UHGV virus genome: UHGV-0030196
Reading direction: 5' to 3' (one strand)
Source: a virus
DNA: 61,145 nt
In this document: positions 24,889-25,983 of the stretch, one piece after another
Layout of the letters: each line of letters begins with the position of its first letter
How positions within the stretch are numbered: position 1 is the first letter of the stretch
Made by a program: the position numbers and the translations under genes
The notes under the pieces: model-generated
Told to the model about the DNA's origin: nothing
Databases searched by the model: none
What the model saw: the letters and a program-made list of their open reading frames with translations, nothing else

Positions 24889-25983
24889 TCATTCAATGAT
24901 TTTTTCGGCTGTCAGCCAGCTAATTTCGTGCCTGTCTTTCGGCGGTTTTAGCATGTGAGCATATTCAGCGACATGCTCCCACGGAATTGTTTTTGCCCAC
25001 TCAACGATAGCATTGTGATCTGCAGTGAAGAGTGGAATAGTGTGCGATTTCAACCATTCTAATGTCGTGACGCCATGTTTTTTGGCGTGGTGCTGCGCAT
25101 GATGCCGGGCTATCACTCGTAATGGCATTGTCCATTCACTACCATCAGGCATCGAAAAGCGCATTGTCTTCGGCATATCTGATTCAAGAACAGCCTCCCT
25201 AATACCAGGGAACTCACCAAGAATCATACGACGATAGTCATCACTATTTCGCCCGCCATACCTTTCGGCAAAATGATCAAGATATTCTTGGGTAATAAAT
25301 GGTGAATCCTCCGCACTCAGCTTAATGGCTTTATATACACCACTCGGATTATCTTCAGCTAAAGCACGTCCATGATGTGAATCATAAAAAAAGCCTATTT
25401 CCTCTGGTGACGGAATTGAAGTGAGCAATATGCGTGAATCACCACTAGTCATGCTTGCCCACACAATACTGTATGCCCGATCGCTGATATGTGCGGAATC
25501 CACAATAATGAATAAAAGATGGTCAGCGTAGTGACCTGCAATGCTATCTTCATAGTTAAGGCGGTAGTAACAAAAGCACATTCCCCAAAATTCATTGAAC
25601 ATCAGACCACTATCACCGACCTTAAAATACTCAATGATAAAAGGTTGTTTTTTCAGCAATGCCTCCCAGCATTGCCACACATATGCAACAATTCCTCTTT
25701 TGCAAGCATTTGATTTTGGATAAACAATTACTGTCCTGGAATCAGGATGCATAATCGTATAAAGGGTACTAATAACAGCAAGCACTTGCGGTCGTCCGAT
25801 CCCATGCGGAGTGGTGACAGTAGCTTTTGCATTATTGGGCTGTATAGCTTCAACAATTTGTTGTTGCTGGTGGCTTAAATCAATATCAAACAATTCTTTT
25901 GCTGCCAGTACCCAATTGTCTTTATATTTCTCCACCAGCGACAGCCAGCGCGGATCTTTATAAATATTGCTCTTAGTCGCCAT
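24889..25983 (-). CDS. Terminase-large-subunit-like paralog with degenerate ATPase motifs
   Basis: Colinear with PacB over ~300 aa; Walker A is GIGR not GTGKS, Walker B is IIVDS not ILDEAS; start reset to ATG 25983 (track 26274). Confidence 0.5.
   Translation of the reverse strand: MATKSNIYKDPRWLSLVEKYKDNWVLAAKELFDIDLSHQQQQIVEAIQPNNAKATVTTPHGIGRPQVLAVISTLYTIMHPDSRTVIVYPKSNACKRGIVAYVWQCWEALLKKQPFIIEYFKVGDSGLMFNEFWGMCFCYYRLNYEDSIAGHYADHLLFIIVDSAHISDRAYSIVWASMTSGDSRILLTSIPSPEEIGFFYDSHHGRALAEDNPSGVYKAIKLSAEDSPFITQEYLDHFAERYGGRNSDDYRRMILGEFPGIREAVLESDMPKTMRFSMPDGSEWTMPLRVIARHHAQHHAKKHGVTTLEWLKSHTIPLFTADHNAIVEWAKTIPWEHVAEYAHMLKPPKDRHEISWLTAEKIIE

Follow-up and report, generated by a model that had tools for sequence, protein, structure and literature searches.

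The paralog gene and its local signals

This analysis concerns a single gene of the UHGV virus genome UHGV-0030196, a stretch of 61,145 nucleotides (from here on, the window) that is a phage-plasmid of the D6/P1 family. The gene lies at 24889..25983 on the minus strand and encodes a protein of 364 amino acids (aa), here called the paralog, in which a relative of the ATPase domain of PacB, the large terminase subunit, is followed by an accessory domain of ~100 aa. We are highly confident of this two-domain architecture and the loss of catalysis, taken together. On the evidence of sequence comparison, the paralog is a selected, non-catalytic accessory protein and not a packaging enzyme. The sequence-only reading of this DNA had likewise raised the possibility of a repurposed terminase fold, and a packaging enzyme is indeed very unlikely in view of the accessory nature of the gene, its absence from P1 and D6, and its location outside the pacAB unit.

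The reading frame runs from an ATG at 25983 to a stop codon at 24889-24891, and this start agrees with the N-termini of the homologs, which are 364-366 aa long. A longer frame from a TTG at 26274 (461 aa) was rejected because it would overlap isaA by ~300 nt and because the homologs favour the ATG; a database call of 438 aa was discarded on the same grounds. A Shine-Dalgarno-like AAGGAAG (25990..25996, minus strand), as read from the sequence, lies 6 nt 5' of the ATG. Upstream, an isaA homolog (25973-26740, minus strand; 255 aa, 48% identical to P1 IsaA, E 3e-89; phrog_2326) overlaps the paralog start with its stop by 11 nt, and the same arrangement is found at the corresponding loci of the P1 variant MH422554 (L002) and of NZ_CP104667 (L019), which suggests translational coupling of isaA and the paralog. 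Downstream, a strong intrinsic terminator (24847..24880, minus strand; GCCCGCC-tggtct-GGCGGGC followed by TTCTTTAT) begins 9 nt past the stop. It separates the paralog from its immediate neighbour, the convergent gene humD (24454-24843, plus strand).

In PHROG searches the paralog gave a full-length match to phrog_5902 (E 6.9e-164; residues 4-363 against profile positions 2-358 of 359) and a much weaker one to phrog_2, 'terminase large subunit' (E 3.1e-10). The former is the paralog's own family and carries no annotation, so membership gives no functional information.

The N-terminal domain is homologous to the ATPase domain of PacB

The N-terminal domain (25207..25983, minus strand; residues 1-259) has the terminase large-subunit ATPase fold and is paralogous to residues 10-264 of PacB. 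As comparator we used the pacB gene of the window's own element (31329..32837, minus strand), which encodes 502 aa with intact Walker A and B motifs and a nuclease half. Residues 7-259 of the paralog align with residues 10-264 of this PacB at 38% identity (97/258, E 3e-62), a similarity far above chance, and the proposed PacB paralogy is thereby borne out. The alignment covers ~255 aa instead of the ~300 aa estimated by eye, and it is confined to the ATPase half, where the N-terminus of the paralog forms an ASCE ATPase domain with a terminase fold. Among terminases, the nearest to the paralog are the P1-family PacBs (P1 and D6-like), to which it is homologous over the whole ATPase domain at 33-38% identity and with the same fold (E 1e-45 to 1e-49); the terminase family that comes next reaches only E 5e-17.

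Motifs were compared in an alignment of four PacBs and five paralog alleles. Besides the allele of the window, it included three from database clusters with 64-66% overall identity and a P1-variant allele of 52%; on the PacB side it contained those of the window (D6 type), P1, Cronobacter phage JK004 and a Vibrio alginolyticus plasmid. Several PacB-like blocks are kept in the paralogs, namely the N-terminal helices, a Q-rich motif, S-x-P (motif III), GxFYDSHH and YGGR..Y...LG.FP, and every allele conserves the N-terminal helices and the lid motifs that it shares with PacB. In their ATPase domains the four PacBs, which come from three genera, are 58-81% identical to one another, as compared with 42-89% among paralog alleles, indicating that the paralog changes faster than PacB. 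The alleles are about equally far (30-38%) from cognate and non-cognate PacBs, and therefore the duplication is old or the protein fast-evolving. No sign of co-evolution between the paralog and its cognate PacB type was seen in the identity matrix, which is confounded by backbone linkage. Together these comparisons indicate that the N-terminal ~259 aa are an ancient paralog of PacB's ATPase domain that evolves fast.

The catalytic motifs are lost in all alleles compared

In the window, the Walker A position (25789..25812, minus strand; residues 58-65) reads TPHGIGRP where PacB has SGHGTGKS (residues 61-68), and the Walker B position (25495..25518, minus strand; residues 156-163) reads LLFIIVDS where PacB has LLLILDEA. 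Extended by one residue, LLFIIVDSA (residues 156-164) stands opposite LLLILDEAS, with the Walker B Asp replaced by Val and the catalytic Glu by Asp. Both SGHGTGKS and (I/L/V)DEASG are kept without exception in the four PacBs. The paralogs have instead TTPxGIG followed by R, Q, Q, H or E at the position of the Walker A Lys, and the allele of the window has Pro in place of the PacB Ser; at the Walker B Asp they carry V, T, A, M or I, and at the catalytic Glu D, E, E, D or N. The Walker A Lys and Ser and the Walker B Asp are thus gone from all five alleles compared. The Arg of YRLGNEE, invariant in the PacBs and possibly the arginine finger, is R, H, R, R or C in the paralogs. The erosion of the Walker motifs that the sequence-only reading had noticed therefore affects every allele, and the chance it had allowed for, that alignment would uncover intact catalytic motifs, is dispelled by both the pairwise and the multi-allele alignment with PacB. 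Judged from these residues, the whole family has lost the ATP-hydrolysis apparatus and retains the terminase fold together with the PacB-specific blocks.

Nor is the gene the second half of a split pacB homolog, the other outcome that had been considered. The paralog matches the first half of PacB, downstream of it there are only 45 bp and the terminator, and the upstream IsaA is unrelated to PacA and PacB, no similarity to either having been found.

A C-terminal domain in place of the nuclease domain

Nuclease-domain residues had been thought to remain in the C-terminal part, which proved wrong. The paralog has no RNase-H-like nuclease domain: only 105 residues follow the ATPase domain, no similarity was found between residues 260-364 and PacB residues 265-502, and the segment (24892..25206, minus strand) belongs to a separate family of ~100-aa phage domains that here takes the place of the nuclease domain. 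It corresponds to the C-terminal module of phrog_17928 (E 4.7e-13), and stand-alone members of the family match phrog_5902 reciprocally. In the structural model the domain consists of a beta-hairpin, four helices and two strands (pLDDT 81-86), connected to the ATPase domain by a low-confidence linker (residues 256-268). Besides the window (24892-25206, minus strand), the domain was located at L004 3501-3797, L005 2986-3300 and L007 5001-5315.

The family comprises 1087 clusters at E<=1e-3, has no Pfam entry and consists mainly of stand-alone proteins of ~100 aa. An exhaustive HMMER search of 1.84 billion representatives with the C-terminal domain gave 197 matches, and among the 150 of these that were listed, a length fitting a terminase-like fusion was seen only in the P1-like cluster (366 aa); among the matches listed, such a fusion is thus particular to the P1-like family. 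Members outside P1 are 31-41% identical to the paralog domain and share with it the motifs MPDGS.W..P..VIA..A..(Y/H)A, T.PLF and W...W..V. All six invariant columns (D, A, A, F, W, W) are present in the paralog, where the near-invariant WAANNMNWSDV reads WAKTIPWEHV. Matches to DUF5076 and PDB 3IC3 recurred, although marginal and below threshold (E 0.088, 0.0073, 0.64). The ~100-aa domain is a candidate new domain family.

Stand-alone genes for the domain lie in early or accessory blocks of small open reading frames (ORFs) in temperate phages of Proteobacteria, often 3' of replication genes and 5' of ninB, with no constant neighbour. In Cronobacter phage JK004, for example, gene_35 encodes a stand-alone protein of 98 aa two genes past a DnaB-type helicase. 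In Xanthomonas CP2-like phages, DUF1351-like coiled-coil proteins of ~470 aa end in this domain; their genes sit within a DUF2303-recombinase-exonuclease-SSB module, and a few other members are fused to Lar-like or N4 gp49/Sf6 gp66-like modules.

Both domains appear to be under selection, with a breakpoint at their border

We estimated the ratio of nonsynonymous to synonymous divergence (dN/dS) for the paralog against two other alleles. Against the P1-variant allele it was ~0.10-0.15, with synonymous sites saturated, and for this reason the closer 65% allele of NZ_CP104667 was also compared. Here the N-terminal domain showed a dS of 1.2-2.3 and a dN/dS of 0.06-0.38 with its peak in the first 180 residues, as opposed to a dS of only 0.17 and a dN/dS of 0.09-0.15 in the C-terminal domain. 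The fall in dS, from ~2 in the N-terminal domain, isaA and the Tad2-like gene further upstream to 0.17 in the C-terminal domain, occurs at ~25200 (residue ~260). Since this is the domain border, a sharp recombination breakpoint can be placed there. Both domains of the paralog are accordingly under purifying selection, the N-terminal one evolving fast, and the operon has been exchanged by recombination up to the domain boundary of the paralog.

Protein identities between the window and NZ_CP104667 show the same step. The N-terminal domain of the paralog, at 53%, has diverged more than any other segment of the operon, followed by the Tad2-like protein as the product of the second most variable gene (61%), IsaA (71%), the orf116-like (74%) and the orf117-like product (80%), while dut reaches 93% and the C-terminal domain of the paralog and HumD each 95%.

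These data contradict simple decay. A duplicate without function, a pseudogene in progress, could be suspected from the lost catalytic motifs and from the many relatives without the gene, yet we consider it highly improbable given an intact ORF in hundreds of records, three allele classes (N-terminal domains 42-55% identical), dN/dS of ~0.1-0.4 in both domains, and the conserved isaA overlap, Shine-Dalgarno-like sequence and terminator.

The paralog is an optional gene of P1-like plasmids

Positions 24400-27500 of the window are 95% identical to Escherichia phage D6 over about half their length, with humD matching P1 and P7. Over 30 plasmids from E. coli and Salmonella, 87-96 kb in size, share the isaA-paralog segment at 97-99% identity. 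A survey of a plasmid collection identified 752 P1-like records with a PacB-type hit, and 163 of them contain the full-length paralog. By identity band, ~34 of them belong to the window class and 10 to the 65% class, the rest being of the 52% class. Every full-length-paralog record among those listed also has a second, PacB-type match. The paralog is therefore optional in P1-like plasmids, and it follows that the lineage packages DNA without it.

Canonical P1 has no paralog. It is collinear with paralog-bearing relatives to the end of isaA and again from hxr on, with ~94 bp, IS1 and isaB in between, and D6 has isaA and again no paralog. In distant D6-like plasmids of Raoultella and Enterobacter and in one sequencing-run assembly, the operon ends at isaA. 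If the isaA-paralog arrangement is ancestral, the reference P1 appears to have lost the paralog. As a separate observation, the IS1 and isaB of P1 NC_005856 (L003 5533-7245) occupy the exact site of the paralog in the P1 variant MH422554 (L002 4003-5121). The idea that P1 IsaB (phrog_30162) is a diverged copy of the paralog was dropped, as the two have no similarity and IsaB is a different sequence in the paralog's place beside IS1. Published comparisons of P1 plasmids mention only the variability of the isaA-IS1-isaB region, a variable hot spot in P1-like plasmids (PMC6906374, PMC9603915), and full-text literature searches found no paper describing the paralog.

An obligate pairing of the paralog with IsaA holds in one direction only: wherever the paralog was seen it followed isaA, but isaA often occurs without it. 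The paralog itself was found at two different loci, both directly 3' of isaA with overlapping stop and start. In D6-type backbones, including the window, it is the last gene of a minus-strand string that runs cre-like, orf, orf, dut, DUF2829/Tad2-like, isaA, paralog. In P1-type backbones it lies between ssb and hxr plus the dar operon, isaA and the paralog following ssb. P1 isaA is non-essential, pacB essential (PMC10695390). The structural model of IsaA has a pLDDT of 73 and only weak fold matches.

The minus-strand string upstream of the paralog

The humD gene does adjoin the paralog, as the sequence-only reading had it; the DUF2829/Tad2-like gene, described there as a neighbour too, does not, with the isaA homolog in between. 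This gene (26747-27409, minus strand) encodes 220 aa, the C-terminal half of which matches the Pfam family Tad2-like (Thoeris anti-defence 2, formerly DUF2829; E 1.6e-22). Its N-terminal ~95 aa belong to another PHROG, phrog_11049, and the D6 homolog consists of the C-terminal part only (146 aa). In relatives, a DNA methyltransferase gene is found in the same operon. Further upstream lies a gene for a Cre/Dre-type recombinase (28806-29834, minus strand), probably of the Dre type because it falls in a stretch 95.6% DNA-identical to phage D6. A near-consensus sigma-70 promoter (TTGGCA-16-TATAAT; 29978-30005, minus strand) is located 5' of the recombinase gene, and all genes of the minus-strand string as far as the paralog may be transcribed from it.

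The distance to the packaging genes had been overstated. The pacB gene is only 5.3 kb away on the same strand, adjoined by pacA (32837-34201), although the paralog is indeed not part of the pacAB transcription unit. It is thus neither encoded beside a small terminase gene nor universal or essential in its lineage.

A terminase-derived pseudoenzyme

Compared with PacB, the paralog lacks the Walker A Lys and Ser, the Walker B Asp and the nuclease domain, has an extra C-terminal domain, is not encoded beside pacA and is optional. Of five features that define a functional large terminase it lacks four, and it should therefore not be annotated as one; the automatic annotation 'terminase large subunit' is misleading for this protein. 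The paralog is instead a terminase-derived pseudoenzyme with a new domain architecture.

There is a likeness to T4 vs.8 and to Ksap1 and Ksap2, phage accessory proteins resembling terminase ATPase domains for which an anti-defence role was suggested by the authors who reported them (bioRxiv 10.64898/2026.04.30.721860). It is a likeness of kind only: like these proteins, the paralog is lineage-restricted, non-essential-looking and encoded apart from the packaging genes, and its terminase ATPase domain is not joined to a nuclease domain. In contrast to T4 vs.8, which was reported with Walker A and B kept (bioRxiv 10.64898/2026.04.30.721860), the paralog has lost both motifs, and unlike vs.8 and Ksap it has a second, C-terminal domain.

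Large terminases belong to the most highly conserved proteins of phages, and bacterial innate immunity senses them as one of its main molecular patterns. What we describe is a selected, catalytically dead copy of the sensed domain only, an optional cassette in about one fifth of E. coli and Salmonella P1-like phage-plasmids. This makes the paralog a concrete candidate for terminase mimicry, be it against immunity, against rival phages or in packaging control. In addition, the finding flags two families for study, that of the ~100-aa C-terminal domain, with more than 1000 clusters and no Pfam entry, and IsaA.

A binding-only mimic as the preferred reading

With no intact ATP site and no nuclease domain, the paralog would act by binding and not by catalysis. 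The function that we consider most likely, albeit tentatively, is that of a binding-only mimic of the PacB ATPase domain in phage-host conflict. Factors that recognise terminase ATPase domains would meet in the paralog a PacB-like surface that has no working ATP site; most plausibly these factors would be the terminase-sensing immune receptors of E. coli and Salmonella hosts (Avs1-3, Upx). The C-terminal accessory domain would provide a second binding or effector function. This suggestion is consistent with the finding that the terminase ATPase domain by itself triggers EcAvs2 and Upx and that ATP bound to the terminase contributes to the Avs2 interface (bioRxiv 10.64898/2026.04.30.721860). 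We also count in its favour the mosaic breakpoint at the domain border, the N-terminal domain being the most diverged segment, and the context of conflict-type genes, that is, the Tad2-like (anti-Thoeris) gene apparently in the same operon, the methyltransferase in relatives and the dar anti-restriction operon in P1-type backbones.

A more specific version, which we regard as rather unlikely, is that of a decoy: an ATP-site-dead bait, made before or alongside the terminase, would occupy or misdirect Avs1-3 or Upx but would not trigger them, and the C-terminal domain would help to neutralise the receptor. If true, such a decoy would be the first anti-defence protein to mimic the viral pattern itself, and it would give a function to a family of small phage proteins with more than 1000 clusters.

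Several points weigh against a mimic directed at host immunity. On co-expression, vs.8, Ksap1 and Ksap2 all trigger Avs2 and none inhibits it (bioRxiv 10.64898/2026.04.30.721860), and a terminase mimic could set off immunity instead of blunting it. None of the anti-Avs proteins described in EVADES, a recent anti-defence protein catalogue, is a terminase mimic. Searches of PADLOC-DB with the paralog, IsaA, the Tad2-like protein and P1 IsaB gave no hit at E<=1; NCBIfam gave no significant match to the paralog, and Pfam only the sub-threshold DUF5076. Guilt by association is weak evidence in variable regions. Finally, the contexts of the C-terminal domain fit a role in replication or recombination equally well, and an interaction with PacA or PacB would account for the retained PacB-specific blocks no less well.

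Alternative functions

The latter point leads to the main rival, a modulator of packaging, in which the dead ATPase domain binds PacA, co-assembles with PacB or docks on the portal. It might damp or time pac cleavage and packaging, for example by shielding the plasmid prophage from a leaky pacase, or it might serve as a dominant-negative motor subunit. That the paralog is closest to P1-family PacBs (E 1e-45 to 1e-49 against 5e-17), that it keeps the N-terminal helices and lid motifs of PacB in all alleles, and that each full-length-paralog record among those listed has a second PacB-type match are all consistent with this. We nevertheless find the proposal doubtful: P1 and D6 package well without the optional paralog, the gene ends the cre-dut-Tad2-like-isaA operon or follows ssb and is not in the late pacAB unit, the equidistance of its alleles from the PacBs (30-38%) gives no sign of co-evolution, and poisoning the packaging motor would come at a cost to the phage itself.

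A second alternative, which seems to us unlikely, takes the dead ATPase fold as a DNA- or protein-binding scaffold that acts with IsaA, the C-terminal domain targeting DNA or the replication and recombination machinery. It draws on homologs of this domain encoded just 3' of DnaB-type helicase genes (Cronobacter phage JK004 and lambdoid prophages), on the fusion to DUF1351-like proteins in the Xanthomonas DUF2303-recombinase-exonuclease-SSB module, and on isaA and the paralog following ssb in P1-type genomes. Other stand-alone homologs, however, lie among unrelated small early ORFs without a constant neighbour, so that the link to helicases and replication may only reflect a position in early operons.

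Even less probable, in our estimate, is exclusion between phages, whereby a terminase look-alike, perhaps together with IsaA, blocks the packaging of superinfecting P1-like relatives or satellites by trapping their small terminase or portal. The existence of three deeply diverged N-terminal allele classes, swapped as cassettes beside a nearly constant C-terminal domain, would suit such a function, as would the position of the gene in the variable hot spot of the isaA-IS1-isaB region (PMC6906374, PMC9603915). The apparent co-transcription with the cre-like recombinase gene from a near-consensus promoter points the same way. If the cre-like gene is expressed constitutively, as P1 cre is, expression of the paralog in the plasmid state would follow.

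Further features of the window

Some candidate signals around the paralog were set aside. With up to 3 mismatches (<=3), the P1 C1-operator consensus ATTGCTCTAATAAATTT has no match in the 61-kb window, which is consistent with an immunity specificity unlike that of P1. An 8-mer of the P1 late-promoter '-22 box' occurs 5' of isaA; it lacks a -10 that could be used, and 8-mers of this kind would turn up by chance. TGATC(A/G) hexamers make up the P1 pac site. A decoy pac site was rejected, since the window has no cluster of these hexamers and the segment 24800-26800 only a single one.

Between humD and the paralog, a segment of 34 bp (24851..24884, no strand assigned) matches the D6 pdcA-isaA intergenic region at 94% identity by blastn; D6 has phd-doc-pdcA there and no paralog. 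This hinted that the paralog is an alternative to the phd-doc addiction module, a notion that was abandoned because both are present in NZ_CP104667. The orf109-phd-doc(-pdcA) addiction module of D6 (L001 3437-4947) and NZ_CP104667 (L019 4631-5763) is missing from the window at 24844-24888. Of the D6 region between humD and the isaA operon, the window keeps the 34-bp remnant only.

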